Origin: a virus
Taxonomy: Duplodnaviria > Caudoviricetes
Reading direction: 5' to 3' (one strand)
Length of the DNA: 64,000 nt
Virus record (IMG/VR): IMGVR_UViG_3300021254_000025
Location: 44,944-108,943 of that record
In this document: positions 21,149 through 63,760 of the stretch, piece by piece
Position numbering within the stretch: position 1 is the stretch's first letter
How the letters are laid out: each line of letters begins with the position of its first letter
Position numbers and translations under genes: made by a program
The notes under the pieces: model-generated
Seen by the model: the letters and a program-made list of their open reading frames with translations, nothing else
What the model was told of the DNA's origin: nothing
Database searches by the model: none

Positions 21149-21535
21149 ATGCCGTATCCTTATTATCAGTACCCTTACTACTATAACCAGAATCAATCTT
21201 ATAGTTCGAACTACAAGAGCATCGAATGGGTTGACGGCGAAGTTGGAGCAAAAGCTTTCCAGATGCCTCAGGGCTTACCACCTGAAACACCGATTGCTCT
21301 ATGGGACAACAGTGAAAAACGCATTTGGCTGAAGAGCTGGAACGCAATGGGAATGCCAAACCAAATGCAGGAACTGAATTACGAAATCAAGGAACGCACA
21401 AATCCCGCATTACTTCCGGGAAATATCTCCGGCGATATGAATCAATTTGCAACAAAAGAAGATCTCGACCATTTAAAGAAAGAAATACAAAAACTTTCCC
21501 GCACAATTAGCGAGAATCGCGGTGGAGAGAAATGA
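21149..21535 (+). CDS. Hypothetical protein with a Tyr/Gln/Pro-rich N-terminus
   Basis: ORF with RBS; WVDGEVGAKAF motif and C-terminal FATKEDL coil. Confidence 0.7.
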   Translation: MPYPYYQYPYYYNQNQSYSSNYKSIEWVDGEVGAKAFQMPQGLPPETPIALWDNSEKRIWLKSWNAMGMPNQMQELNYEIKERTNPALLPGNISGDMNQFATKEDLDHLKKEIQKLSRTISENRGGEK

Positions 21536-21783
21536 ATGAATTGTATAATGCATATATGAAAAATCCAATTAACAGACCTGTCGAAAATTTAAGTCCAATG
21601 CAAAAGCTGAATCAGGTTATGCAGGCGATGAGAAATCCGCCGTCTGTTATTTATCAGGCATTTCCTGATATTCCTTTATATATGCAACATGACGCAAATC
21701 AAATACTCCAATATTTAAAACAAACTCGAAACATATCAGATTACGATATACAAAACATATATAATCAAATTCCAAAATTCTAA
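21532..21783 (+). CDS. Hypothetical Asn/Gln/Met-rich protein
   Basis: ATGA overlap with the previous gene; GGAG RBS. Confidence 0.65.
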   Translation: MNELYNAYMKNPINRPVENLSPMQKLNQVMQAMRNPPSVIYQAFPDIPLYMQHDANQILQYLKQTRNISDYDIQNIYNQIPKF

Positions 21784-21801
21784 AGAAAGGAGCGGTTAGC
21801 A

Positions 21802-24420
21802 ATGCCTTATCTTGATTATCCAGGGTTGCAAAGATTCAAAAATAAGATGGATGAGAAAATTGAATCAAAGATAGATTCATCCGAAAAAGGCTCAGCCGGT
21901 GGAGTTGCCGAGCTGGATTCTAACGGCAGAGTTTTATCTTCTCAATTGCCATCTTATGTAGATGACGTTCTTGAGTTTTCGTCTGCTGATGCATTTCCTA
22001 TTACCGGTGAAGCAGGCAAAATCTACGTCGATCTGAATTCAAATGCAACCTACAGATGGAGCGGAAGTGATTACGTAAAAATTGGCTCAAGCTTAACCTT
22101 AGGAGAAACTGAAAGCACCGCTTATCGTGGAGATCGCGGTAAGGTTGCTTACAACCACGCCTATGCCAAAGGGTCGGCCTTTGAGAGCGGCCTGTATAAG
22201 ATTACTACAAATGATCAAGGCCATGTAATCATGGCCGACCCTGTGGTAAAAACAGATATTACTTCTCTTGGAATTCCAGGACAGGACATGGATACAAGAG
22301 TTACCAGCTCGGAAAACCACTATGTTCCAGAAACAGACGCAACGGGAACAATTAACGCAAATGCTTCCAGTGGCGCTGAAAACTGGAACGTTGATGTTGT
22401 AAGTGGAATATCTGTAAATACAGACGGAAGAGGACATATTACAGGATTATCTGTTTCTTCCAGCAGGATTCCGTCCAATCCAAATACTGATACTAAAGTT
22501 ACAAACGCAGAAAATCATTACACTCCAGTCAGAGATCCTTCCAGTGACAAAACTGCTGTCGCTGAAGGCGGTGCAGCAAGCTGGAATTTCGACGTTGTAA
22601 CTGGTTTAACCTTACAAACTGACGGGAAAGGTCACGTCACAGCTGTGAGCGTAGACTCAGCTAAAGTTCCTGTCAATCCAAACAATTATCGTGCAGTTCA
22701 AGTGGATGATGTTGAAGTGTTAAGTTCAGGCACAACATCCGCTATGAATTTAAAAGGTGGACGTAATGTTACGCTTGAAGCAACCGGTGGTGCTATTACT
22801 GTAAATGCTGCAGATACAACTTATGAAAATAAAGAAGCGTCTGCAGATGGAACAGAAGTTTCTCTTGTGACAACGGGAGAAAAAGCACTCTGGAATTCAA
22901 AAACGTCCAACCTCGGTACTGTGACAAGCATCACAGCCGGAGACGGCCTTACAGGCGGTGAAATAATTACAAACGGAACCATCGGCCTTAATCTGAAAGA
23001 CTCAGTATTAAGTGCATTTCCTTCTGTAAATATTACACCTATAGGCGGTAAACAATATGCAGTAGGACTGGACAGTGACGGATACCTCAGCGTGAACGTT
23101 CCGTGGACAGATACGTTATACGCAAATCTTGAGCCTGTTGTAAACGGAACGGATGTGTCTCTGGTTACAACTGGCGATAAAGCAAACTGGAATTCAAAGA
23201 CATCCAATTTGGGTACTGTTACTTCTGTTTCGGCCGGAATTGGTTTGGCTGGAGAACCTATAACAGAAAGCGGAAGCCTTAAGGCTAAACTTAAATCCGA
23301 AGAAGTCGGTTTAATTGACTCTATGATCTCTGCAAATATTGTTGGAAGACAATATGCTGTTATGGTTGATAAGTCCGGGTACTTATCTGTTTGTGTACCT
23401 TGGGAAGATACCAATACAACCTATATCAGCAGAGAAGCCGCTGCAGGCGGAAATGATGTTTCCCTTGTAACTACAGGAGAAAAGTATTATTGGAACTCCA
23501 AAACATCTAATTTAGGAACAGTAACTTCTGTAACTGCAGGTGCCGGATTAATCGGCGGTACAATTACAGAAACTGGAACCATTAAAGCAAACCTTGCAAG
23601 TGAGACACAATTTACTAATAGTGTTATTAGCGAAGGAGCTGAAGTTTCCACCAGAATCTATCCGATAAGGTTAGATAGAAACGGTAAGCTTGCAGTTAAT
23701 ATTCCTTGGACTGATACTACGTATGAAAGCCGGATGGAAGCAAGCGAAGGCACGGAAGTATCCCTTGTTACTTCCGGTGAAAAATACACTTGGAACCACA
23801 AGATAGATCAATCTTCTATTGGCGTTTCCGGTGGTGTTGCAAGTCTGGATCTTAGTGGCAGAGTTCCTGCATCACAGCTTCCAAGTTATGTAGACGATGT
23901 TCTTGAATATGAAACCGTAGACTTATTCCCTATTGTTGGTGAGAACGATAAAATCTACGTTGCGTTGGATACTCGTCTTACGTACAGATGGAGCGGTAGT
24001 GTTTATGTTGAAATTAGCCAATCAATTGGACTCGGAGAAACAGAAACAACCGCATATTGGGGAGATCGTGGAAAGATTGCCTATGAACATGCAACAGCAA
24101 AAGGTTCTGCCTTTGGTAGTGGTTTATATAAAATCACAACAAACGCTCAAGGACATGTAACAGCAGCAACAGCTGTTGTTAAGGCAGATATTACATCCCT
24201 TGGAATTCCGGAATCTGACACAACTTATCCCAATTTGAACGCCGCTGAAGGTGGCACAAATGTATCTCTTGTTACCACAGGAGAAAAATATATGTGGGGA
24301 CACAAGGCAGATAGGGCGGAAGTATGGGTAGACGAAGCCAATGGAATCCTTCATATTATGACAGATCCAAATGCTACACCATATGATCCAAACGCAGAAG
24401 AACAAGAACCAGAGGAGTGA
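21802..24420 (+). CDS. Repeat-built fibre protein
   Basis: Two copies of GGVA.LD..GRV..SQLPSYVDDVLE...GDRGK...ITSLGIP, two ENHY.P units, and three WNSKTSNLGTVTS units. Confidence 0.75.
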   Translation: MPYLDYPGLQRFKNKMDEKIESKIDSSEKGSAGGVAELDSNGRVLSSQLPSYVDDVLEFSSADAFPITGEAGKIYVDLNSNATYRWSGSDYVKIGSSLTLGETESTAYRGDRGKVAYNHAYAKGSAFESGLYKITTNDQGHVIMADPVVKTDITSLGIPGQDMDTRVTSSENHYVPETDATGTINANASSGAENWNVDVVSGISVNTDGRGHITGLSVSSSRIPSNPNTDTKVTNAENHYTPVRDPSSDKTAVAEGGAASWNFDVVTGLTLQTDGKGHVTAVSVDSAKVPVNPNNYRAVQVDDVEVLSSGTTSAMNLKGGRNVTLEATGGAITVNAADTTYENKEASADGTEVSLVTTGEKALWNSKTSNLGTVTSITAGDGLTGGEIITNGTIGLNLKDSVLSAFPSVNITPIGGKQYAVGLDSDGYLSVNVPWTDTLYANLEPVVNGTDVSLVTTGDKANWNSKTSNLGTVTSVSAGIGLAGEPITESGSLKAKLKSEEVGLIDSMISANIVGRQYAVMVDKSGYLSVCVPWEDTNTTYISREAAAGGNDVSLVTTGEKYYWNSKTSNLGTVTSVTAGAGLIGGTITETGTIKANLASETQFTNSVISEGAEVSTRIYPIRLDRNGKLAVNIPWTDTTYESRMEASEGTEVSLVTSGEKYTWNHKIDQSSIGVSGGVASLDLSGRVPASQLPSYVDDVLEYETVDLFPIVGENDKIYVALDTRLTYRWSGSVYVEISQSIGLGETETTAYWGDRGKIAYEHATAKGSAFGSGLYKITTNAQGHVTAATAVVKADITSLGIPESDTTYPNLNAAEGGTNVSLVTTGEKYMWGHKADRAEVWVDEANGILHIMTDPNATPYDPNAEEQEPEE

Positions 24421-51599: not shown

Positions 51600-51790
51600 T
51601 TTTGCTTTCCTTCTTTTTCACGTTCTTCCCTATACAGCGGACAGGATTCTGTTCCTTTTAAGTTCGCAGCTGAAAACAAACCTGTCTTACTTAACCTATG
51701 TATTGTATTGCGTTCACATTTTTCATAACTGCATTCGCTTACGCACCATGTTATATCGTCATAAATCCAGTCATACTCCATCTTTATCAC
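51596..51790 (-). CDS. Small Cys-containing hypothetical protein
   Basis: DITWC...C...C.R...CP; lies in an operon-like run. Confidence 0.6.
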   Translation of the reverse strand: MIKMEYDWIYDDITWCVSECSYEKCERNTIHRLSKTGLFSAANLKGTESCPLYREEREKEGKQN

Positions 51791-52424
51791 TCCACTCTTC
51801 TTTGTTTCTTGGATGTCCGCAAGGTCTTTCCTCTGTGCATTTTCCTGTTACACATCCAGGCCCTGCGTTTTCAAAGACTTGCGGCGCTATTTCCTTGCAC
51901 TGCTTAAGCATCTCGTCTGCCATCTGACGAATCTCCCATTGAGCTCTATTACATGTTCGGAGACCAAAGAAATGCAGGAGTTCCCGACAGTTCATTGTCA
52001 TAAATAATTGAGTTGGAACAGCCTGCGGTGTTACGTATCTTGCATCTTCCGCTGGAATTCCTGCATCAAGAAGCTTCTTGTATGTATCCATAGAATGTTT
52101 CATACAAGATATTGCTTCCTCAGCAAGATCAGACTGTTTAATGGTTTCCGGAATAATAAGTTCAGGATTATCAAGCTTTACATATCGCTGGCTCTGAACA
52201 CTGAATGAAGCCAAACGATGTCGTGTCAGCTGCGCAAGGCAAGCTCTGCTGATTCCTTCGATTTCAAATGTAAACGATGCGTGTTCAAGAACGCTTGTAT
52301 GTCCTGCTCCGGCTGAATGTTTCAGTGAGCTTTCATAATTGTTTGAATTATAACATACGGCTGCAGCCATTCCACAAAGTTTAGCTGCATCCATTATTGG
52401 ATAACTAATAAGTTTTACTTTCAT
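51771..52424 (-). CDS. thyX: Flavin-dependent thymidylate synthase
   Basis: GHTSVLEH, ISRA...QLTRHR.ASFSVQSQRY (RHRx7S motif), EDARY, AQWEIR. Confidence 0.95.
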   Translation of the reverse strand: MKVKLISYPIMDAAKLCGMAAAVCYNSNNYESSLKHSAGAGHTSVLEHASFTFEIEGISRACLAQLTRHRLASFSVQSQRYVKLDNPELIIPETIKQSDLAEEAISCMKHSMDTYKKLLDAGIPAEDARYVTPQAVPTQLFMTMNCRELLHFFGLRTCNRAQWEIRQMADEMLKQCKEIAPQVFENAGPGCVTGKCTEERPCGHPRNKEEWSDKDGV

Positions 52425-52439: not shown

Positions 52440-52823
52440 TCAATAGTATCTTACGGCTCTTGTCACAACCCGTAATACTTTTCCGCATATACCCATATCC
52501 ACAAGTTCATGTATTGCTTTCTCATAGTTTTCGTCCTTTGGTTCTGCCATTATTTTTCTCTGCGGATACGAGTAGCAAAGATGGTACAGTGGATAATCTT
52601 CCTTTAATTCTTTCTCCATAAATTCGATTTCAGCGTTGATGATTTTTTCTCTCGGAAGATTGATCAAGTCAAAGATATACTCAGGGATGTAATGGATAAT
52701 CTCTATTACCGCATGTTCGTCGTCATCAATAATTTTCTTAACCATATTATACCTTTCATTTATATAACTGGAATTTTTTTGAAATTTTCCAAGCTGTTTC
52801 ATCTTCAAGTGGGCGAAAACCAA
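52440..52823 (-). CDS. Hypothetical protein (true start possibly downstream of 52823)
   Basis: Fills the gap between pth2-like and thyX on the coding strand. Confidence 0.55.
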   Translation of the reverse strand: MVFAHLKMKQLGKFQKNSSYINERYNMVKKIIDDDEHAVIEIIHYIPEYIFDLINLPREKIINAEIEFMEKELKEDYPLYHLCYSYPQRKIMAEPKDENYEKAIHELVDMGICGKVLRVVTRAVRYY

Positions 52824-53196
52824 TACATGTTAATGTGCGACCTATTCCATTTTCATCAAACTCTTCTGGTATTAGCTCTGTGTTACAAGCATCCTTAATT
52901 AAAAAGAAATCTTTTCCTTCTTCTAATCCAAGTTCTTCTGCTAATGTTTTCGCTTTTAAAAGCTGAGTTCTATTTTTAGCTTCGCAGATAGTTTTTGTAA
53001 AAATGCCACAGAACCAATCTTCGTAAACAGTTTTAGGAATAACTAATGGAACAAGGTAATCTGTTGTTAAACTAAGTTGCTCGCCCTTACTACGAATCTT
53101 TTGAGATAGAAATGCCCAACTTGCATGTGCAACTTGAGATGCAAGTTTTCCTGGACTCATTTCCAAGTCTTTTCGCGCAATTATTAGTTGTCTCAT
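52756..53196 (-). CDS. Peptidyl-tRNA hydrolase, Pth2 family
   Basis: M.Q.II.RKDL.MS.GKLA.Q.AHAS, K.I.., I.DA..TE, T.IG..P, ...L.Y match the Pth2 signature. Confidence 0.85.
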   Translation of the reverse strand: MRQLIIARKDLEMSPGKLASQVAHASWAFLSQKIRSKGEQLSLTTDYLVPLVIPKTVYEDWFCGIFTKTICEAKNRTQLLKAKTLAEELGLEEGKDFFLIKDACNTELIPEEFDENGIGRTLTCIGFRPLEDETAWKISKKFQLYK

Positions 53197-53242
53197 TTTT
53201 CCTCCTTAGGGTAGTCCATGATGGAAGCATACAGCAAGTTAA

Positions 53243-53383
53243 TCATGTTATCTCACAAACAATTTCCAATGCCACAAGCAATGCAGATTTCCAACCACGA
53301 ATATATTCTTCGTCTTCGCTGAATGCTTTATCTGCGTCAGTAATACACTCTTCAATTTCTTTAATAGCTTCATCTTTTGTCAT
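53243..53383 (-). CDS. 46-aa hypothetical protein (not in the ORF track)
   Basis: MTKDEAIKEIEECIT...EIVCEIT with an AAAGGAG RBS. Confidence 0.5.
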   Translation of the reverse strand: MTKDEAIKEIEECITDADKAFSEDEEYIRGWKSALLVALEIVCEIT

Positions 53384-53402
53384 GCACCAAACTCCTTTTA
53401 AG

Positions 53403-53579
53403 TTAGGGCTTTAGCCAACCCCATTGAATTATTTCATGGCAACACGGACAAATGACATCTTCTTTATTGATTCTTGCATGACATAATCCACAAACTATGT
53501 ACCACTTTTCAGAATCGTATTGGTTCATATTTTCAATATCGTTTTTGTCCCTGATGTCTGCTATTTCTTGCATGGTCAT
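53403..53579 (-). CDS. 58-aa Zn-ribbon protein (not in the ORF track)
   Basis: CGLC...CPCC; AGGAG RBS. Confidence 0.55.
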   Translation of the reverse strand: MTMQEIADIRDKNDIENMNQYDSEKWYIVCGLCHARINKEDVICPCCHEIIQWGWLKP

Positions 53580-53690
53580 ATAATTATCTCCTGCATTTTT
53601 TGCCGTTGTGCTTTTTGTATACTTCTATTGTGGAATTAATTTTCATTACTATTATTATTCGCCGCTACTTTGTAATACAGCAAATGTATA

Positions 53691-53903
53691 CTATACTATT
53701 TGTAAATCGTCGAATAACAATACGTTGTAATTGTGAATTTCATCATCCGATTTGTACATCAATTGTGTATCATGTCCACGATACTTAGATATAAATTCAT
53801 CATAGCTCATTGTATTATAATCTTGTATCATCTTATTACGGAGTTTTATGTCGTAGTCATCCCATGCTTGTAGATATTCTTCTTTAGTCTTTATCGGTTT
53901 CAT
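53691..53903 (-). CDS. Hypothetical protein
   Basis: ORF on the coding strand with an AAGGTG RBS. Confidence 0.5.
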   Translation of the reverse strand: MKPIKTKEEYLQAWDDYDIKLRNKMIQDYNTMSYDEFISKYRGHDTQLMYKSDDEIHNYNVLLFDDLQIV

Positions 53904-53929
53904 TAGTTACACCTTTTTGGCATTTCATA

Positions 53930-54101
53930 ATACAGTAATTGAGCAGGTGAGGATTTGCACCTCACATGACAGCCTTTACCAAGATCGCGGGTCGCATGAG
54001 CCATAACTCCTTCTTCTCTCGGAGTAACGTTACCTCTCCGATGGTAGCTGTCTCCCGGTAGCACGTCTACCTTTTCCGTCACCGCTCGTTATACAGTAAT
54101 T
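53930..54101. repeat. 11-bp direct repeat ATACAGTAATT flanking the tRNA-like element
   Basis: Copies at 53930-53940 and 54091-54101. Confidence 0.75.
53940..54087 (-). ncRNA. tRNA-like RNA with an expanded anticodon domain
   Basis: Minus strand: GAGCGG/CCTGCTC-A acceptor-like stem, Leu/Ser-type D arm ACG-GAAAAGGTAGA-CGT, T arm TGAGG-TGCAAAT-CCTCA. The ~95-nt middle is closed by GACAGC/GCTGTC and TACCA/TGGTA. Confidence 0.65.
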
Positions 54102-54109
54102 TAACAGCA

Positions 54110-54379
54110 TCACTTTTTCTGCTTTTCTCGTGCCTCAAAACACGAGTTGCAAGCTCTTGCATCTATTTCACAATCCCATTTATCACAGTAATCGTAATAC
54201 CAATGGTAATGTTTGCAATCGTCACAGCTGAACTTATTCGTATTAGTTTTTTGTGTTCTTTCTTCATCGAATAGTTTTTTACATTTTTCGCAATTCTTTG
54301 TTGTGAGTGGAGTCCAATTACTAAGAAAACAATTTTGGCATAAAGGATCGCACGTCATGTTACTATACAAGTTATTCAT
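54110..54379 (-). CDS. Cys-rich hypothetical protein
   Basis: Several CxxC motifs. Confidence 0.6.
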   Translation of the reverse strand: MNNLYSNMTCDPLCQNCFLSNWTPLTTKNCEKCKKLFDEERTQKTNTNKFSCDDCKHYHWYYDYCDKWDCEIDARACNSCFEAREKQKK

Positions 54380-54381
54380 AC

Positions 54382-54684
54382 TTAATTATCTGTTTTTCGC
54401 CTATCTATGTAGTCTCCGATATTCACGGAATTATAATAATCTTCAGTAACATTCCACCATTCTTTTCCATCTTCGTTCTCAACAAGAATACTCCATGAAT
54501 CAGCATGTGATATCCATCGTGGAATAATCTGTGTATGTCTATTCTGCATCATTATAATCGGTTGGTATGTTCGATGTGCTGGAACAAATGATTTGTCTTT
54601 AACTGTTCCGTTGTTTATAGATGCGCAACCTGTCAGACAAATCATCATAACAAACAGAAGTGCCACAATTATGATGCGTTTCAT
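54382..54684 (-). CDS. Putative lipoprotein
   Basis: MKR, a hydrophobic stretch, the lipobox LTGC, and V.EDYY.SV.IGD. Confidence 0.65.
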   Translation of the reverse strand: MKRIIIVALLFVMMICLTGCASINNGTVKDKSFVPAHRTYQPIIMMQNRHTQIIPRWISHADSWSILVENEDGKEWWNVTEDYYNSVNIGDYIDRRKTDN

Positions 54685-54902
54685 ACTATGTTGTCACCTT
54701 CTTCCTTTGCTAGTATCTGCATTTTCCATTTTTCATTTTTAATTCCCATTTCAATTAATGGGCACCATTCTGGTCTTTTCTTGAAAGGATCATCTATTTC
54801 ATCATTGTAAAAACTTTTATGGTTGATTCCACAGTTTACATAATCATTATTGCATGGACAATCTGAACAATTCTCAGGCATAGGAATATCAATTATTATC
54901 AT
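54681..54902 (-). CDS. Small Cys-rich protein (MP..C..CP...RP.WCPL type)
   Basis: Similar to the N-terminal module of the 56978 gene. Confidence 0.65.
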   Translation of the reverse strand: MIIIDIPMPENCSDCPCNNDYVNCGINHKSFYNDEIDDPFKKRPEWCPLIEMGIKNEKWKMQILAKEEGDNIV

Positions 54903-57900
54903 CCCACTTCACCGCCTGGTTGTATGGGTTTTCTTGCTTGTAAATATTTCGAAGGATATCAAGCTCTGCTTCTTGTTGGAGCAATTCTGCTTCCTGCTCT
55001 TTTAATATGGCAATGGTATCCTCGATCATCTGTCCCATGCAGTATTCGGGCTCCCTTATCGCCCTGAATTCTCTGCCGTTACAGATTTCATACGGGTTGC
55101 TGTCACGGAAAATCTTCCATGCTTTGATGAGTCTGTCAATGTTAGCCATTCCATTTCACCGCCTGTCCACAGAATCCGCACCAATGCGGGTACACTTCGC
55201 TGTTCAACCTTTCTCCGCAGTGTGGGCAATCCCCAAATTTGGTATCGAAAATTTTCCCACAAATTTCAACGGGTATAGGTTCACGCTCTCTTTGCATGAC
55301 CTTCATCAGACCAATAACGTTTGTGTACATTTCATGTAGATCACCATCATCCTGCACTAATTCACAATCGGCACAGTTCCGGTCGCAGTCATCGTGCGAT
55401 CCTCTGAGCATGCATTCATGTTCAATTTCTAATAGTTCAATCATTCGTTGGATCGTCATTCACTTCACCGACCTTTTTATTTTTCCTCGTAAACATATTT
55501 TTTAATAAATTCCATATCCGTTCAAAAACGTTCGGATAATAAGGAATTTCATCTGCTTCTTCCCACGTTCCATAAACCGTCTGTTTTGAGGTTTCCGGTT
55601 CATTCATCCCACTTTACCACTCTTCCTCCGGCTTTTCCGTTTTCTTTACAGATTCATGATGCAACTCAACTGTTGTGCTTGAAACCGTATAAGGAACACC
55701 ATTTCCACAGTAATAACACATTGGAATTGTTGGCGAATAAACCCGTTTACAAATAGGGCATTGCCAACCTTGCTGTGCAAAATCAACGCTATGCCACTCG
55801 CTCATTCCACTTCACCTACCTTCCTGCTTGTTTTTGTTCATTTCCTCTAACTTCTTCAGAATCCTTGAACTGTTAATAGCAATATGAACAAGCGTTGCAC
55901 ATACAAGATAACCCATCAGCAGAAAATTTATTCCAAGGCACCTGATAACATTGTCAAGACTCATTCCGCTTCACCTACTTTCCTGCTCCAATGGATACAT
56001 CCTTTGAGGTTTATCTGTATCCATAATGATTATTCCCTTGGGAAGTTTCTTTTCTACATCTTCAATTTCATGCAAATATTTGCTTGAGTAAACATATGTC
56101 ACAGTTAAACTATAACCATCAGTTGTTGGCATGTTCCAATGGCTTGATTGTGTGATTTTCATTCTTGCTTCACCTCTTGCTTAAGCCGTTTTATGAGATA
56201 TGCCTCAAAATTGTCTAAACCTTCAAAAAAGTAACCAGTATCAGCTTGAAATGCATAACCTTTTTTGTCTTTCCAATATGTACAACTACATTCATCTTCT
56301 TCGTCATCTATGTATTTGTTTATCGTTTGTATTGCATTCAAGCATTTGGCTGCATTTTCATCTGCGTTGTATTCTTTATTTATCTCAACGGCGTCCTGTT
56401 CTTTCAGTATAGCAATGGCATCGTCAATGTATTCCATGATGCCGTTATAATCATCTCTAAACATAGTTAATGCGTTTACATATGATTTGAAATCTTTTGC
56501 CCATTCTTCAATTGTCATTCCCACTTCACCTTTTTACCGCACTGACGGCAGTATTTTGCATATTCCTTCGCTTTGTCGATTCCATCGTAAATGTGATACA
56601 TGTACGCACCACACGAACCACAGGCCCATACAAAAATGCCGTCTTCACCTTGTTTGAATGTCGGTTCAACTGCTTCCTGCTCTTTCAGCAGAGTAAGAAT
56701 TTCGTCAATAAATTTATGCGCTATTACTGCACTATCAAGTCCGATTTCCGCAGTTTGCGTTTTTATATCCTCTAATGTACTGATAACATTTTCCCTGTCA
56801 GTCATTTCATCCAGCTCCTTGTTCTTCCACACAACCAATTACCAACGGCGCTATAATATGTAGGCTTCTTTCCTGTTTCTTTTTCAATTTTCTTTTCACG
56901 AAAATGATTAACGATAAGCCCAATAATACAGCCAGCTTCCGCAATCCCCAATACGCAAAGAATAAACACATCCTCATTCATTCCCACTTCACCTCTTGTC
57001 CGCAATATGGACAATAGTTCCATTCACGAAAAAGTTCTTCATCACGACTTCCACATGTAGGACAAACATAATCCCAATAGCCATTCTTTTTACGTATAAC
57101 TGGATTTTTCGCTTCATGCTTTTTCAACGGACAGTTATCATCACGTTTATTATTCAGCCATCCACTGTCGTTTGCAATCTTACATCCCATGTTTTTCCTC
57201 ACCCAACAAGAATAACAATCAGATGGCATCTGAATATCAATCTGAACCATCCCACTTCACCGTCTTTCTTTGCTCATCCGATGGCTTTGCAGACCAACAC
57301 CGCCATTTCTTGCCATAGCTGTCGTCACCGCGCTGTATCCGTATTGAGGCAATGCATGGCCATGTAATACAGGTTAATGCATAATCACCGCAAATCATTT
57401 TGTATTGTTTTCCAGGCAAACGTTCTTCTTCCAAATAGCAACAATCCCAATCAAACGCTTTGACCTCATCCAGCGTCATCACTCGTGCTTCCTGCTCTTT
57501 CAGCAAACCAAGAACATCGTCTACCAATCGTTCGCATATTTGAAACGATCTTCCCCCATATTCGCAGTTTTCACAATCGTTACATTTTTGATTTTTGCGG
57601 CAATATTCAAGACTTTCAATAATTCTTTCTTTACTCACTCACACTTTACCGACCTTCCCACAAAACTGGATGTCCACATTCACGACAGAATTTGTCAAAC
57701 TCGTTTGGGTCATCCTCGTCATGATCTTCAAATCCAACATATGAACCGCAGTTTCCACACAACCATATACGACCTGTTTCCTTGTCACGAACAGGCTTTA
57801 CAGCATCTTGCTCCTTCAGCAAGTCAATGGTATCACGTACTAATTCGGCGCATTGTGGCATTAACTCGTCAAGAACAATTGCAAGCCGTTTAAGCCGTTC

Positions 57901-59719
57901 TAATAGTAATTCCCTGTCAGACATTCTACTTTACCTCATTGTCTTTTCCTGTTGTTGTGTCTACTGAATAACAGCTTCCTTCCGGATGCTCAATGGCATA
58001 TTTATATCCATCAATAAAATCAGGCGTATCCTTTTTATGAACAAAAACATCGCCTTGACCATACCGCCATCCTTTGTGCCAATCATCCGATTTAGATGTC
58101 CACTCGTCATTCGTCATTTACACTTCACCGATCTTCCACTTTAGCTTTTACGGTTTCAACCATGCCAACAAATGCCACCGTTTCAGCCATACCGCCAATC
58201 GGAATGCCACTGTTAATATTGTCATATTTTTCAAGCGCTTCGGCTACATATTCAGAACCGATATTCTTTTCAACCCATTTGGCAAGTTCAGACCGTAAAT
58301 TGTAGCGTTTTCGTTTTGACTTTTTAAACAATTTCATTTTTCCGTATTGTTTCCTTTCTCTATTAATTCGCAAAGAGTGTGCTGTGTTCCGACAAGAATT
58401 GCGATTTGACTTCGTAAATCATGAATTAAGCCGAGAGCATCATCCAATACTTCCCAGACTTTGTAATCAACAGTATCCTGTTCCGGTCTGTTCTGTAAAA
58501 GGTCTTTTGCGTATTCAATATCTTTAATAATTTTGTTGCAATCCGTCATTCACTTTACCGCCTTTTTACCATTTTAATGGGATTTTGTTTGTTCCTGCTG
58601 TTGGTGTGGATTTTGCTTCCTGTTCTTTCATGCACTCATATGCGTCAGCCATAAGTTTACGCATGCAAGTCGGTCTTCCAAGCCTGTAAGGACAAATAGC
58701 AGAGCAATCGTCTTCTTTTCCGCATATCTTAAGCCAAAACATAACCTTTTCCTTGTTCATTCAGTTCACCTTCTTTTGTTTTTTCCATTGCCATCTGTCT
58801 TAAAGTGTCCCCAAAATAAATTGAATAGCATTTATTTTTTCTTCTTTTGTCATAGTTGATACTATTTCTTCAATTCTTCGCCTGTCTTTTGCTTCAGCAT
58901 CTGTAACTTCTCCAAGGAAATGTGTAATAGCATCTTCGTGCTTTGATGGAATTTTTGATACGCCGGAAAGCCACTTTGAAACCATGCTTCTCGAAACACC
59001 AATACGATTGGCTAATTCAGATGGTCTTAATCCTTTCAACACTAAGGAATACCGCAAGTCTTTGCCTGTCATTTCGGCTTCACCGCCTTTCCCCATCAGC
59101 GCAGTACCAATCCGAGTTGCTCACTGTAATTCCTGTTTTCGCGCAATATGTCATTATCATGTTTGTGCCCGGATAAACTGTGTTTATTTTATAGTGTTTG
59201 CAATCCTTGCACCTGACTACAGGAACTGCATCCTTGCTAAAACCATTTATAAATCCTATAAGTTTTTCTATTTTCGCTTCCTGTTCCTTCAGCAGCTCGT
59301 AAACATCTTTAATCAAAGCATGTTTGCAATCATATGGAATATCTTTATAAGAGCACTCTCCGCACAGGTTTGTATTATCAGGACGCAAACAGTACTCGAT
59401 GTCTTTCATTACTTTATCCTTATTAATCATCCCACTTCACCGCCCTTCCGCAGCTTGGGCAGTAATTGTAATAAGTCATTATTTCTGTTTCTTTGCATTT
59501 TCCACAGTAATAGCATCTATCTTCTATGCTTAATCTTGGCTTAACCGCTTTCTTCTCTTTTAATAGTTCACACATTTCATCAAACATTGGTTCTGAAATA
59601 TAGTAAAATATTCTTGAAGTAAAGAGATCTTCTTCGGCAGTTGATTTAACCCTTTTGATAAAATCATCTATTTTCGTTGCCATATTCAACAAATCCTTTC
59701 CATTTCTGATTGTAAACAT
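54889..59719 (-). other. Dense array of about 20 small ORFs, many Zn-ribbon or LKEQEA-family (e.g. 54889-55149, 55142-55459, 55614-55805, 55812-55964, 55971-56162, 56159-56524, 56515-56838, 56978-57250, 57237-57638, 57646-57924, 57926-58117, 58334-58549, 58566-58760, 59080-59430, 59423-59719)
   Basis: Abutting or overlapping minus-strand ORFs sharing N-terminal (D/N)REK/VI..LE, internal LKEQEA and C-terminal CxxCG..VKW motifs. Confidence 0.75.
58800..59072 (-). CDS. XRE/Cro-family helix-turn-helix protein
   Basis: LR......GL...ELA.RIGVSRS.VSKW.SG...IP; start follows the junction motif. Confidence 0.8.
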   Translation of the reverse strand: MTGKDLRYSLVLKGLRPSELANRIGVSRSMVSKWLSGVSKIPSKHEDAITHFLGEVTDAEAKDRRRIEEIVSTMTKEEKINAIQFILGTL

Positions 59720-59872
59720 ACGTCATTCGGACAAGTAATACGCCATTTTTTATCTGGTTCATTGCAAGAGTCTGATTTTTTACAATATGTACAGATCGGA
59801 ACATAATCTTTTGTCGATGTTCTTCTGTTAATGTATATGGCTCGATTGATAATCTCTGTTTTCATCGGTATT

Positions 59873-60298
59873 TTAATCCTCCGTAGCAAGAACATTCTGC
59901 ATTTCGTATTCTGGGCACCAGTCATCCCAAACAACAGCGATGGTTTTACGCGCTGAACATCCAGCATAACCTTTTGCATCAAACTTACCTTTATAATACT
60001 TGCAATGATTGCATTGTGGTTTGTAATATGGCTTATTATTGTATGTTTTTACTATTCGATTGTCGTACGGTAATGAAGTCGGAATTACAATATTTTCAAA
60101 ACGTTTTCCGCAAAATGGGCAATGTGATGGTGTAATTGTGTAATTTCTACATACCAAAAATGGTTTATCCTCTGTAAATTCTTCAATTCCTTCCTCATAA
60201 TTAATGAGAAGATTAAGCTGTTTTTCACAAGAACTGCATGTTGGTTTAAATATTATTTCAGCCGGAATACAAGATTGATTAGTTTTAATAGCGTCCAT
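59873..60298 (-). CDS. Multi-Zn-ribbon hypothetical protein
   Basis: CSSC...CPFCG...CNHC..Y...C...WC. Confidence 0.65.
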   Translation of the reverse strand: MDAIKTNQSCIPAEIIFKPTCSSCEKQLNLLINYEEGIEEFTEDKPFLVCRNYTITPSHCPFCGKRFENIVIPTSLPYDNRIVKTYNNKPYYKPQCNHCKYYKGKFDAKGYAGCSARKTIAVVWDDWCPEYEMQNVLATED

Positions 60299-60303
60299 TA
60301 TGG

Positions 60304-60528
60304 TTACCCTCCAATAATAGGGCCAGTTCTTTCCTTCTTTTTCTTAAGAATATAATTGTCGCAGCAGTATTCGCTGTCATTAGTGTTCTCATGCCATTCG
60401 ACTTTATCATCAACGTCGATTCTCGCAGTACAGACGTATCCATCAAGAAAGGTACATTGTGCTCCACCAGGAAACAATTCAACTTTTTCGACTTCATGGT
60501 GATAGGCACAGGTTTTACAGTTTTTCAT
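60304..60528 (-). CDS. Small Cys-rich protein
   Basis: MKNCKTC.Y...C...CC..Y; preceded by the junction motif. Confidence 0.6.
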   Translation of the reverse strand: MKNCKTCAYHHEVEKVELFPGGAQCTFLDGYVCTARIDVDDKVEWHENTNDSEYCCDNYILKKKKERTGPIIGG

Positions 60529-60543
60529 TTATTTCACCTCATT

Positions 60544-60981
60544 TTATTGCCTTATTGGAAATGTCCCATACATGTTGGAATAATAGAACTGTCTTGCAGA
60601 TTGCTGATTAATCTCTATCGCCATTAATCGTTCTTGAATGAGCTGCATTTCAAGGTCATGAATTTTCAGATCAATTCTTATTTTTATCTTTTCTTCATCT
60701 GTAGGCTCTGAATCCAAATGATAGTATTTCCTTAGTATTTCATTCTCATCCGTGAGTTGTTTAATGGTTTCATGGCACGATTTCAAATCCGCAAGATCTT
60801 TTGCCGTCTTTGCCTGGTCATCAGCTCGTTCTTTTAGCGATTCATAATATTCATTCTCTCGTTTTTTAAGCTTTTGTTTCAACCCATCGATCTCGTTTTT
60901 TAAAATTTTACTTGCTATCTTCTTTAATATCATTCTGCTTCCATCCTTTTTTCTATACGTATTATCTATAAGGACATACAT
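60544..60981 (-). CDS. Coiled-coil hypothetical protein
   Basis: Heptad-rich ORF; true start possibly at MILKK. Confidence 0.6.
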   Translation of the reverse strand: MYVLIDNTYRKKDGSRMILKKIASKILKNEIDGLKQKLKKRENEYYESLKERADDQAKTAKDLADLKSCHETIKQLTDENEILRKYYHLDSEPTDEEKIKIRIDLKIHDLEMQLIQERLMAIEINQQSARQFYYSNMYGTFPIRQ

Positions 60982-61432
60982 TTTCGCATTCTGACATACA
61001 ATAATCGCTTCCTAATCCATAGCAAACGCTTTTCTTTGTATTAGTTTTTGTAGACTGTTCGGCGTTTTTCTTTTCCTCTGTTCTTTTTTCTACACAATTT
61101 CTTATAATTTTGCTTGCTTCTGCGTTGCTAATATATTTGTCGCATCCTTCGCATGGACAATAACCCCACTTAATTTTTGATTGTGTACAATATCTTATGG
61201 TTGCGCCCATGTCTTTTGTTTCTTCATAAAAATAACAATCTTCTTTGTATTTTGGTCGGTTAAAGTCAAGTCCGCAACCATAAATCATATATGGTTCACA
61301 CGTATACTTTGGTTCTATAGAATCTTCAGTCTTTTTGTTTGTACGTGAGTTATGCACGGCATCTTCTAAATCCCATTCATAATTTTCTGGCACATCTTCA
61401 TTTTCAAATAAATGTCTTTCTGTCAAACCCAT
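60962..61432 (-). CDS. Cys-containing hypothetical protein
   Basis: 156-aa ORF with an AGAAGGT RBS. Confidence 0.6.
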   Translation of the reverse strand: MGLTERHLFENEDVPENYEWDLEDAVHNSRTNKKTEDSIEPKYTCEPYMIYGCGLDFNRPKYKEDCYFYEETKDMGATIRYCTQSKIKWGYCPCEGCDKYISNAEASKIIRNCVEKRTEEKKNAEQSTKTNTKKSVCYGLGSDYCMSECENVCPYR

Positions 61433-61471
61433 CCAATTACACCTTCTTTCCGCGCATTCTGCAGACTTTTA

Positions 61472-61849
61472 TTAGATGCCCTTAATGGCGTGAACAATAT
61501 AATCAACCACGTCTTTCACTTGCTGAACGGACCAATTAACGTTATCAAAAGTAGCAGTTTTCGCAATTAGAATCTCTATGCTAGTCGTCCTTCCAGGAAT
61601 AAAGATTGATGCTGTAATCAGAACAAAACCAACAATCCCAGTGACGATTGCCCAGGTTTTACACACTTTCATATAAACTTCGTTATCTTCGTAACCATTT
61701 TTCGCTTCACTTGCGTTATATATCCATCCAGCAACCAGACATATAAACGCTGTTACGAGCACTCCTCCAATTATAGCAATTACGGTTTGCAGAATACTAA
61801 GGACATTAATCCAGTAAAACACCTGCGGATTAATTACATAATTTTCCAT
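61472..61849 (-). CDS. Membrane protein (two TM segments)
   Basis: INP..FYW plus two hydrophobic helices; IFIP..T motif. Confidence 0.7.
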   Translation of the reverse strand: MENYVINPQVFYWINVLSILQTVIAIIGGVLVTAFICLVAGWIYNASEAKNGYEDNEVYMKVCKTWAIVTGIVGFVLITASIFIPGRTTSIEILIAKTATFDNVNWSVQQVKDVVDYIVHAIKGI

Positions 61850-62024
61850 TTGTTTTATTCCTTTTCTTTTAACATCGCATATATTTGGTAAATGTGTTTT
61901 GCGTTATATCCTATTCCTTTTGTTATCTCTGTTAAAGCTTTAATATCTTGTTGGTTATGATATGTTCCAAGCGCAGCATACGTAGACATAACTGTGACCA
62001 ATACAATCAAAATGACTACTGCTA

Positions 62025-62337
62025 TCATTTCACTTCACCATCTCCCTGTATATTATGCCTTTCCATCCTCGTTCCACAGTGTGGGCAGAAATATGAAAAC
62101 TTCTTTTTAAACGGATAGTTATCAAACACTTTTGTATGACACTCTGAACAATAAACGCCAGCATTAGAACAGTTTTTAAGTACAATCCAATGCCCAATCC
62201 TCTGCTCTTTCAGCACGGAAATAATCTTTTTTGCTTGTTCCTGTGTCAGCGAAAGTGTTTCGTCAGCATCAGCGTATTTCTGCAAATCATCAAGTTGAAT
62301 TTCCAATCCTTGAATAATCTTCTCTTTATCGTTCATT
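62025..62337 (-). CDS. LKEQ-family Zn-ribbon protein
   Basis: MNDKEKIIQGLE...VLKEQR.GHW...CSEC...FCPHCGTRM; start follows AAGGAAGG. Confidence 0.65.
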
Positions 62338-62670
62338 TTTGTCCTTCCTTTTTCCAGAGGCGCAAAACCAATCTTTATCTGTTTTTGCGCTGACACATGG
62401 AATCCATCGTGATGTCTGACCCTGATCTTTCCAGAATATACAGTCTTTGCATCGAACTATTTCAGGTCGTTCTTTTATCGATGAAATAGCATCACGTAAT
62501 ACGTCAGATACTTTTACTCGTAAAGAAACTTGTCCCTCGCCATATTGACCTTCTTTGAAAACAATATCAAAATCTGTATCTTCGTATTGTTCCTTTAATA
62601 AATGTAATCCATTGCATATTGCATTTTGCGTTAACATAATTTCTTTATCTACTTTCATACTATTACACAT
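62326..62670 (-). CDS. LKEQ-family protein with a VRCKDC module
   Basis: LLKEQ...IVRCKDC...DWFCA.G.RK; same C-terminal module as the 59080 gene. Confidence 0.65.
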   Translation of the reverse strand: MCNSMKVDKEIMLTQNAICNGLHLLKEQYEDTDFDIVFKEGQYGEGQVSLRVKVSDVLRDAISSIKERPEIVRCKDCIFWKDQGQTSRWIPCVSAKTDKDWFCASGKRKDKNER

Positions 62671-62880
62671 CCAATTATTAAATCACAATTATTAAACCGC
62701 TTTTGTATCCTTGTTTCATGCAACTTTCCAGTAATCTTTGGCCGCATTTTCTCCATCTGGACTTTTTATATGCTTTTCGATAGATGCTCCACTGAACATT
62801 TCCGTGTTCATCAAATTTAATTGTCATTCTTTTAAACCTTCTCTTTCAAGAAATTTTCGGATACTATTTCCTTAATGTTT

Positions 62881-63342
62881 TTATTTCTCTTCTGCATACC
62901 GATCTGTTGCGAAGCGCACATTAAAATGTTTGTCTTCATTACCCCAGCGGAACATAAAGTCAATCTCAACGCTATCTCCATCACGGCACCATAAATTCGG
63001 ATCATCACGAACAGCTTGCGGCATAGAGTTCAGGTCGTGCGTTGCCTGGTAAATCCAGTGATCATACGTGCTCTTGTTCTTGCAGCGAATTACAATGTCC
63101 GCAACACGTATGCCAATAAACCGGGTATCGATACCAACCCAATATGTCCAGCTGCCATCATCGTTCAGCCCCTCGAATCCGTGAACGTTAGCGTACATTC
63201 CAACAGATTTCTGTGATGCGTTAACATATTCATCACAAATATGATTAACCCAATATGTTTGTTCTGTTGATTCCAAGCCTTTGTTGCTAAACAGTTTTTT
63301 TATCCATTCGGCAAACCTTTTAAAAATGGAAATAATCCCCAT
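62881..63342 (-). CDS. Hypothetical protein
   Basis: 153-aa ORF with an AAAGGAG RBS. Confidence 0.65.
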   Translation of the reverse strand: MGIISIFKRFAEWIKKLFSNKGLESTEQTYWVNHICDEYVNASQKSVGMYANVHGFEGLNDDGSWTYWVGIDTRFIGIRVADIVIRCKNKSTYDHWIYQATHDLNSMPQAVRDDPNLWCRDGDSVEIDFMFRWGNEDKHFNVRFATDRYAEEK

Positions 63343-63682: not shown

Positions 63683-63735
63683 AATTGTACCTCCATATTT
63701 TTATTTATGTAAATTATATTTTATCAAATACAAGT

Positions 63736-63760
63736 AGGCCCCGCCATAACGACGGGGCCT
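63736..63760 (-). terminator. Hairpin terminator downstream of the HU gene
   Basis: AGGCCCCG-loop-CGGGGCCT; followed on the minus strand by ACTTGTATTT. Confidence 0.6.

Follow-up and report, generated by a model that had tools for sequence, protein, structure and literature searches.

The final 64,000 nucleotides of the virus record IMGVR_UViG_3300021254_000025 (Duplodnaviria; Caudoviricetes), referred to here as the window, contain an array of tightly packed small genes on the minus strand, most of which are joined by one short nucleotide motif, GGTRAAGTG. The record is 108,943 bp long, linear and 74% complete by the collection's estimate, and positions given below are those of the window unless the record is named. 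Copies of the motif stand at a nearly constant distance before start codons, keep their nucleotides in every frame of the upstream gene and in non-coding DNA, recur beside different genes in many other phage stretches, and are bracketed by breakpoints of similarity between phages. These observations incline us, without strong confidence, to read the motif as a ribosome-site linker at gene starts that is at the same time a standard connector at which genes are exchanged; that cassette boundaries are marked by it throughout a broad pool of phage genes is partly supported. The reshuffling of small accessory genes in phages is an old open question, and clear natural examples of the linker model of modular phage evolution are few. 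The present case offers a defined connector of ~20 nt with an apparent translational role, a partner linker inside genes (the stretch coding for the peptide LKEQE), a gene pool of 84 stretches and an enrichment of breakpoints that can be measured.

The motif at start codons

Twelve exact copies of GGTRAAGTG occur in the window, all on the minus strand, compared with a mean of 0.58 in shuffled sequence (standard deviation 0.68, maximum 3; 0 of 100 shuffles reach 12). The whole record holds 13 exact copies, again exclusively on the minus strand with no exact plus-strand copy of the 9-mer, and 12 of them lie in the block of small genes. Twelve of the 13 stand 1-3 nt ahead of the start codon of a small minus-strand gene; the thirteenth, at record position 22658, falls within a large gene and has no start codon behind it. 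With four variants that differ by one mismatch (55152, 55967, 57927 and 58762) and three that differ by two (56166, 59076 and 60530), the search recovers the 19 copies, 17 of them within 54.9-59.5 kb, that an initial annotation of this DNA had reported from the letters alone. Within that interval the motif is present at 17 of the 19 gene junctions, the two junctions without it being the starts at 58337 and 56805. An independently run repeat search of 54600-60600 returned two dominant families of direct repeats, which are the junction motif and the LKEQE-coding sequence, and some of the junction repeats extend to 22-52 nt (families D5, D7, D15 and D20).

The distance between motif and start codon varies little. 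All 19 copies in the window lie 1-3 nt before a start, which is ATG in 18 cases and GTG in one; for the gene behind the copy at 56985 the start is most likely at 56981 (56802-56981, 59 aa), not at 56977. Among 91 fetched phage loci, 147 copies of the 9-mer have an open reading frame (ORF) behind them, and the gap to the ATG is 1 nt in 11, 2 nt in 110, 3 nt in 25 and 6 nt in a single copy, giving a spacing of 1-3 nt in 146 of the 147. Upstream genes are less regular in where they end, with most stops between -14 and +7 and extremes that lie 23 nt within the following gene and 39 nt ahead of it. Outside the array, GGAG precedes 70 of 133 predicted genes, in keeping with the initial statement that most other genes use AAGGAG or GGAGG, and GGTGA precedes 17 of 133. 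These 17 include the two-mismatch motif copy at 59076, and in the remaining 16 the spacers are unrelated. The motif is therefore not a general feature of ribosome-binding sites across this genome, a point on which the first annotation also holds, given that 12 of the 13 exact copies in the record are confined to the small-gene block.

Conservation of the motif operates at the level of nucleotides. When the 91 fetched loci and this genome are taken together, 166 copies followed by ATG can be classified by the way in which the upstream gene reads them: 103 are in the frame that yields VKW, 43 contain the upstream stop codon (for example ...CADGERR-stop and ...WEGR-stop), nine are in the GEV frame and 11 are non-coding. 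If the copies found with 17-mer seeds are set aside, the split is 35 VKW, 20 stop, two GEV and three non-coding (n=60). Codon choice points the same way: among 136 ORFs with VKW in their last 12 residues, Val is encoded by GTG in 130, against a rough background of 25% and with the search seeds included, and Lys by AAG in 108. In the window itself the tails claimed at the outset are all found, namely VKW(D/E/N) in the upstream genes at 54889, 55142, 56515, 56978, 57237 and 59423, an R-stop or W-stop at 55614, 55812, 55971, 57646, 58125 and 59080 (of which 55812 is added by the present list), and GEVK at 62025. The earlier conclusion that it is the nucleotides that are conserved is thus borne out by three upstream frames and by non-coding DNA.

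The motif is most likely a region of ribosome binding and of coupling between stop and start codons, as judged from its sequence and placement. It occupies the Shine-Dalgarno position, and the array genes have no other Shine-Dalgarno sequence. Its predicted pairing to a generic 16S rRNA tail, not that of the host itself, is -11.8 kcal/mol compared with -11.0 for other genes, and the motif region is predicted to be more open than other starts (unpaired probability 0.58 vs 0.48, p=0.006). Pairing with rRNA does not account for the fixed bases AGTG(G), which are also retained in the four GGTAAAGTG copies, for which predicted pairing is weaker. The extended motif, approximately rAAGGy-GGTGAAGTG-g(g/a)-ATGA, would serve the downstream gene as its translation-initiation region; it occupies either the final codons of the preceding gene or the short gap that comes after them. 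In this arrangement GGTGA, often joined by an AAGG further upstream, would form pairs with the tail of the 16S rRNA, the start codon follows 1-3 nt past the 9-mer, and the upstream frame would be closed by the TGA inside GGTGA or by the frequent ATGA, so that ribosomes would pass from gene to gene along one long transcript. A single transcript with coupled translation also fits the overlapping and abutting genes, the lack of any terminator-like site on the minus strand within the array, and the number of sigma-70-like promoter sites in the array, which is at chance level (42 vs 41.9 in shuffles) and includes none that coincides with a motif.

Several other functions were considered for the junction sequence and set aside. 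A hairpin that sequesters the ribosome site is unsupported, the junctions being predicted slightly more open than other starts. A trans-acting antisense RNA from the same record was rejected, as the 9-mer has no exact complement there other than the opposite strand of the array. By eye, only a minority of copies in the window would accommodate a two-quartet G-quadruplex or a mini-ORF of two codons (GTG-GGA-TGA) that overlaps the ATG, and both ideas were dropped as well.

Gene exchange at two linkers

Comparison of all fetched loci and this genome with one another by blastn yields 718 internal alignment ends, 130 of which lie within 20 nt of the motif, where 8.1 are expected and the maximum in 500 trials is 19. 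This excess is the enrichment of similarity breakpoints between phages that the initial annotation had anticipated. The LKEQE-coding site attracts a further 98 ends within 20 nt (8.3 expected), and ordinary GGAGG-N-ATG sites 29 (13.5 expected). When alignments of at least 150 nt are considered, 91 end at the motif and 13 pass through it, 79 end at LKEQE-coding sites and 10 pass through, and for GGAGG-N-ATG sites the relation is reversed, with 22 ends and 50 passages. Ends of alignments that arrive from upstream cluster mostly at +9 to +18 relative to the first base of the motif, and starts of those that continue downstream lie mostly between -7 and 0, which puts the exchanges on either side of a unit of ~20 nt.

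The LKEQE stretch provides an instructive comparison, as a site without a ribosome-site role. Its codons are fixed at synonymous positions (AAA in 90 of 95, GAG in 83 of 95 and CAG in 83 of 95, followed by GAA in 68 of 86), and it forms the breakpoint between unrelated N-terminal modules and conserved C-terminal modules. The gene at 57237-57638 illustrates this organization: seven loci match its C-terminal domain, which runs from LLKEQEA to the motif, at 81-86% DNA identity, and its N-terminal part matches a different contig (loci L007 and L021), the N-terminal parts being unrelated in the protein alignment. Since Lys is AAA in LKEQE and mostly AAG in the VKW tail, codon bias is unable to explain both patterns. 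Because the LKEQE site has no part in ribosome binding, its uniformity gives real weight to the idea that exchangeability keeps both linkers uniform.

Joints between the array and other sequence are also present in metagenomes. Contigs of four other animal-gut metagenome runs were aligned to 53000-63000, and the joints considered are those listed in two tables (15 of 75 and 12 of 24). Among the 26 joints listed, 37 of the 52 ends fall within 15 nt of a motif (18) or of an LKEQE site (19), where 6.7 would be expected, and six of the joints listed run from motif to motif, such as that from 56517 to 56982, which removes 56515-56981. The aligned joints show that the linkers adjoin other sequence in other samples, which is not proof of a recent rearrangement of this phage. 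Among the listed sequencing runs that contain the stretch, none is registered as RNA.

The motif is widely distributed among phages. A search with the array protein encoded by 57237-57638 identified eight IMG/VR loci, in five of which the motif lies at junctions beside different genes, and the 17-mer GGCGGTGAAGTGGGATG is present in 84 IMG/VR stretches, whose contigs measure 4 to 150 kb. A further five large phage genomes contain 2, 3, 2, 10 and 2 copies of the motif followed by ATG, clustered and confined to one strand in each genome, with 0 for a reversed-pattern control. In a genome collection a 19-mer matched 23 stretches; seven of these hold further motif copies or LKEQE sites and belong to metagenome-assembled genomes (MAGs) titled Clostridia, Clostridiales, Oscillospiraceae or Acutalibacteraceae, and matches in other phyla are single copies of chance-like appearance. 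The hosts of these gut and rumen phages are probably Clostridia, an assignment that is tentative since phage contigs can be misplaced during MAG binning. The most widespread protein families neighbouring the arrays are SSB, a small protein resembling helix-turn-helix (HTH) proteins and a ParB-like protein, each in 12-13 of the 91 loci. A literature search for the motif strings and for LLKEQE or LKEQEA found no description from a phage, only unrelated papers. In practice, accessory-gene arrays in gut viromes could be sought by means of the motif.

The 10-mer GGTGAAGTGG, contained in every motif copy, is a mirror repeat with the same letters backwards. A Chi-like hotspot of the host was considered for this sequence and rejected: five array-holding MAGs of the class Clostridia carry only 10-24 copies per 2.1-3.8 Mb, some of them within arrays. 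A reversed-pattern control gave identical counts and is uninformative, because the 10-mer reads the same in both directions.

These patterns suggest how the motif might act as a connector. The connectors are often the sole sequence common to otherwise unrelated neighbours, and short-homology recombination or template switching between their copies would relocate, remove or exchange entire genes at the motif and half-genes at LKEQE, with a product that stays translatable in either case. The ~20-nt unit, common to many gut and rumen phages, would then be one of two standard connectors of a gene pool, with the LKEQE stretch as the other. A bolder version, which we offer as possible and expect somewhat less than its contrary, is that the two stretches are standardized connectors of a kit shared across unrelated gut and rumen Clostridia phages, their identity being kept since exchangeability itself is selected. 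If true, the array would represent diversification of small zinc-ribbon proteins, possibly factors of host takeover or anti-defence, by combination at two levels, with whole genes swapped at the ribosome-site connector and N- or C-terminal half-genes at the in-gene connector, and would amount to a working case of the old linker model.

A number of results weigh against an active role of the motif in exchange. Junctions inside arrays that lack the motif are boundaries too, with 22 ends and one pass-through compared with 61 and two at strict motif copies, and the breakpoints may be explained without the motif if each small gene is its own unit. The sole difference lies in how often a similarity end is present at all, which is the case at 36 of 109 motif junctions and 12 of 92 other array junctions (2.5 times as often). 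The initial proposal of a combined ribosome-binding site, stop/start coupler and recombination site therefore stands in part: the position fits a ribosome site and breakpoints are enriched, yet recombination that uses the motif, as opposed to ending there, is called into question by the behaviour of motif-free junctions. Most of the metagenome joints have one short side, of 20-48 nt aligned at 85% likeness, and joints of this kind often stem from other organisms; they may belong to other phages. No match to RecT, ERF or RecA was found in the 74%-complete record, and 9-20 nt is short for RecA-type recombination. The sample of loci is biased, L009-L091 having been picked for holding the 17-mer. 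Finally, 62% of the copies are in the VKW frame, and a tail containing W is kept in two relatives that lack the nucleotide motif (AVSWNE in L001 and ATPWTE in L008), so that conservation resides partly at the protein level. This protein layer is real and exists alongside the nucleotide layer; 56 of the 103 VKW-frame copies come after a CxxCG zinc-ribbon knuckle.

Alternative explanations and known systems

The plainest alternative treats the motif as a ribosome site only, a preferred initiation and coupling sequence of one class of genes, with breakpoints that merely coincide with gene boundaries and no part in recombination. The tight spacing to the ATG, 16S pairing and accessibility that are ordinary or slightly better, the lack of a recombinase match in the record, and the equal ratio of ends to pass-throughs at motif-free array junctions are all compatible with this view. 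It leaves over the fixed AGTG(G), given that the 16 other GGTGA sites of the genome have unrelated spacers, and it accounts neither for a ~20-nt sequence common to 84 stretches from very different phages nor for the fixation of LKEQE inside genes, where breakpoints arise in the absence of any ribosome role. The greater frequency of similarity ends at motif junctions is likewise left over, and we consider a purely ribosomal role unlikely, though it deserves serious attention. The same conserved positions beyond the reach of rRNA pairing, together with their confinement to one gene block, would suit a site on the mRNA that is recognized by a phage or host factor and switches the gene class together, an arrangement that can coexist with a connector role. 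Candidates for such a factor include a translational repressor like RegA of T4, an endoribonuclease like RegB, which cleaves within ribosome sites, and a small RNA, and the GGTAAAGTG variants, which keep AAGTG in spite of weakened predicted pairing, are in line with it. Part of the account of mycobacteriophage start-associated sequences (SAS; PMC3203893) leaves the same question standing there. No candidate factor emerged, and the record contains no exact complement of the 9-mer beyond the array's own strand. A phage-encoded factor would moreover have to travel with a motif common to otherwise unrelated phage genomes, for which no common neighbour is seen, and the conservation of LKEQE would need a separate explanation; the probability we assign to regulation as the reason for the motif is accordingly low.

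Three further explanations are much harder to sustain. Distant paralogy among many of the array proteins, with junction repeats that reach 22-52 nt, would be expected if one ancestral gene and its ribosome site had been copied in tandem and the motif were the undiverged remainder. The paralogues have, in fact, diverged to 26-50% protein identity against a nearly invariant motif, and about half of the downstream genes are unrelated; the motif also occurs in three frames, in non-coding gaps and, beside different genes, in 84 stretches from other phages. The motif is therefore not a relic of duplication, an origin that the data on frames and neighbours largely refute and to which we attach next to no credence. 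The gain and loss of small genes of like orientation as units, with breakpoints that bracket a short core, could instead reflect a site-specific cassette system in which the motif is the attC-like core site of a dedicated recombinase. A search for the tyrosine integrase family PF00589 in the 74%-complete record gave no match (the control was positive in 14 of 14 genomes), among the 91 loci no family of recombinases is found repeatedly beside arrays, and no attC-like local inverted repeats or hairpins exist at the junctions in 54600-60600, where inverted pairs are distant and chance-like and the region is predicted to be unpaired. A dedicated recombinase is thus very improbable, and the integron analogy of the initial annotation fails as a mechanism. 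It is similarly hard to believe that each motif is a promoter at which a phage RNA polymerase begins a nearly leaderless transcript: a 906-aa protein has a weak match to a two-barrel RdRP family (E 7.7e-4, below the cut-off) and sigma-70-like sites are at chance, but the position and content of the motif fit a Shine-Dalgarno sequence where no other one is present, and the genes overlap or abut as they do in operons.

The reading of the motif as ribosome-site linker and connector can be placed beside several known systems. Under the linker model of modular phage evolution, which dates from the 1970s, and for the boundary sequences of lambdoid phages, short conserved sequences between functional modules were proposed as points of homologous crossover. 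The arrangement described here differs in its evident translational role and in having a second linker within genes, at a domain boundary. Integron cassettes are alike in that small genes of one direction are exchanged as units at a short core; they differ from the array in their integrase and attC hairpins, neither of which was found here, and the core here is a ribosome site. Accordingly, the array is not classed as an integron. The targets of T4 RegA and RegB and the stoperators of mycobacteriophage L5 are further instances in which a class of genes shares a short asymmetric site, at or near ribosome sites or in junctions, through which one factor controls them together. Stoperators are bound by the phage repressor, affect transcription and occur across both arms of the genome, in contrast to the motif with its one 5-kb block and one outlying copy; they are also mentioned in PMC3203893.

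The closest resemblance is to the SAS elements of cluster K mycobacteriophages. As described in the part of Pope et al. 2011 (PMC3203893) used here, SAS is a 13-bp asymmetric sequence with the consensus GGGATAGGAGCCC that lies 3-7 bp before starts that are mostly ATG, in one orientation and ahead of non-structural genes only, which belong to different families; it combines a Shine-Dalgarno core with conserved bases that do not pair, and about half of the sites have ESAS, 17-bp inverted repeats. The same portion of text gives no established role for SAS, and the corresponding portion of a 2025 survey (PMC12699233) calls its function unverified. The motif shares with SAS its short asymmetric form near starts that are mostly ATG (18 of 19 in the window, with the spacing of 1-3 nt in 146 of 147 copies noted above), its Shine-Dalgarno core with fixed bases unable to pair with 16S rRNA (judged on a generic tail, not the host's own), and its single orientation in a non-structural part of the genome, with 13 of 13 exact copies on the minus strand and 12 in the block. 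In both cases the upstream stop sometimes lies inside the element, and different gene families follow it in related phages. The two differ in sequence (GGTGAAGTG vs GGGATAGGAGCCC) and in host phylum, the multi-copy loci here coming from MAGs of the class Clostridia. The motif also lacks ESAS-type 17-bp inverted repeats in 54600-60600, forms one dense block and usually lies within the upstream coding sequence. Enrichment of breakpoints and an in-gene partner linker are observed here, and the sections of the SAS literature consulted (PMC3203893, PMC12699233) contain no report of them. The motif thus resembles SAS in behaviour and is not a member by sequence or lineage. Extension of the start-associated-sequence phenomenon from mycobacteriophages to phages of gut Clostridia suggests a general habit of phage accessory arrays.

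A second parallel is found in the PeSL elements of T4-type phages, which, in the excerpted text of Arbiol et al. 2010 (PMC2839356), are ~100 bp long, consist of a sigma-70 promoter and a terminator stem-loop, and form mini-circles that were shown by experiment. Like the motif, PeSLs are regulatory and conserved, and they lie beside small orphan genes of hyperplastic regions; the gain, loss or replacement of genes ends at the element, the idea being that recombination there leaves the newcomer expressed (same excerpt of PMC2839356), with the qualification that motif-free junctions behave alike in the present array. By comparison with the PeSL described in that text (PMC2839356), the motif is shorter, at 9-20 nt, and translational, with no promoter (none coincides with it) and no hairpin (the junctions being predicted open).

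The gene array and its surroundings

Structural genes on the plus strand extend to ~51 kb of the window, and small minus-strand genes continue from ~51 kb to its end. Among the genes of the array are modular LKEQE/zinc-ribbon paralogues, which are only 26-50% identical in protein sequence, together with a single HTH gene (58800-59072), genes for small membrane proteins, and ORFs that are unrelated. Of the genes behind a motif, about half fall outside the paralogous family (the HTH gene, small membrane proteins and orphans). The positions of the array, the motif copies and the LKEQE sites are collected in the table.

Table. Array, junction motif copies and LKEQE-coding sites, in window coordinates.
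Feature	Position	Strand	Context
Array of ~24 tightly packed small genes (50-141 aa)	54681..60528	-	most joined by the motif; from the ORF list and translations
Motif GGTGAAGTG	54905..54913	-	2 nt before ATG of 54681-54902; VKW in upstream gene
Variant GGTGAAATG	55152..55160	-	2 nt before ATG of 54889-55149; VKW upstream
Motif	55461..55469	-	1 nt before ATG of 55142-55459; GEV upstream
Motif GGTAAAGTG	55610..55618	-	2 nt before ATG of 55437-55607; W-stop of upstream gene within motif
Motif	55808..55816	-	2 nt before ATG of 55614-55805; R-stop of upstream gene within motif
Variant GGTGAAGCG	55967..55975	-	2 nt before ATG of 55812-55964; 28-nt junction 93% identical to 55801-55828
Variant GGTGAAGCA	56166..56174	-	3 nt before ATG of 55971-56162
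Motif	56522..56530	-	3 nt before ATG of 56159-56518; VKW upstream
Motif	56985..56993	-	3 nt before ATG of 56802-56981; VKW upstream
Motif	57253..57261	-	2 nt before ATG of 56978-57250; VKW upstream
Motif GGTAAAGTG	57642..57650	-	3 nt before GTG start of 57237-57638; R-stop of upstream gene within motif
Variant GGTAAAGTA	57927..57935	-	2 nt before ATG of 57646-57924
Motif	58121..58129	-	3 nt before ATG of 57926-58117; R-stop of upstream gene within motif
Motif GGTAAAGTG	58551..58559	-	1 nt before ATG of 58334-58549; non-coding, upstream gene ends 16 nt before start
Variant GGTGAACTG	58762..58770	-	1 nt before ATG of 58566-58760; non-coding, 39-nt gap
Variant GGTGAAGCC	59076..59084	-	3 nt before ATG of HTH gene 58800-59072; upstream ..CADGERR-stop within variant
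Motif	59433..59441	-	2 nt before ATG of 59080-59430; VKW upstream
Weak variant GGTGAAATA	60530..60538	-	1 nt before ATG of 60304-60528
Outlying motif copy	62031..62039	-	2 nt before ATG of 61855-62028; GEV upstream
LLKEQEA codons in gene 57237-57638	57486..57506	-	example of the in-gene linker; repeat families D1, D2 and D4
Like LKEQE sites	~54988, 56393, 56671, 57802, 58614, 59275	-	same repeat families
Weaker LKEQE sites	55290, 59546, 62199, 62581	-	LKEQE sites in the window span 54988-62601

Annotation of the array proteins was largely uninformative. Searches of Pfam and PHROGs with ten of them returned weak zinc-ribbon matches, one HTH_3 match and PHROGs families without an assigned function. 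Against GenBank phages, neither megablast of 54000-62500 nor tblastn with the 57237-57638 protein gave a match, so that there is no cultured relative from which to take annotation. A search of PDB sequences with the 59080-59430 protein found nothing credible (best E-value 0.02, to an unrelated PAS protein), and the ESM Atlas returned only unnamed viral clusters with scores of 0.82-0.86, below the 0.9 that counts as more than a lead. An AlphaFold model of the 57237-57638 protein, built on an alignment of eight rows, has a mean pLDDT of 58.9, a quality too low to support a search by fold.

Just downstream of the array, on the minus strand, lie genes for a ThyX thymidylate synthase (51771-52424, E 2.4e-66) and a PTH2 peptidyl-tRNA hydrolase (52756-53196, E 4.1e-17). 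With ~30 very short genes beside it, the position of the peptidyl-tRNA hydrolase may be no coincidence. At the other end, the strongest terminator-like hairpin of the region, with 11 pairs of which eight are G-C, sits on the minus strand after a gene that is truncated by the end of the record and that, by eye, is a candidate DNA-binding protein of the HU/IHF type. The best promoter-like site of the region (10/12) comes after this hairpin, the two being covered by 63736-63760 and 63684-63713, and it may be where transcription of the unit containing the array begins.

In the left arm of the record, SSB (L092:9508-9897, record positions, minus strand, E 6.1e-21) and RNase H (L092:17190-17636, record positions, minus strand, E 5e-28) are the sole named functions among ten larger proteins. 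The 906-aa protein with the weak match to the two-barrel RdRP family PF05183 is encoded outside the window, on the minus strand at record positions 21259-23979 (L093:1259-3979), and may, from that match, be a phage RNA polymerase. Lastly, a stretch of ~25-30 nt at ~53943-53967 of the window recurs with 93-100% identity in four other large phage genomes out of five searched, at two, one, four and one places.

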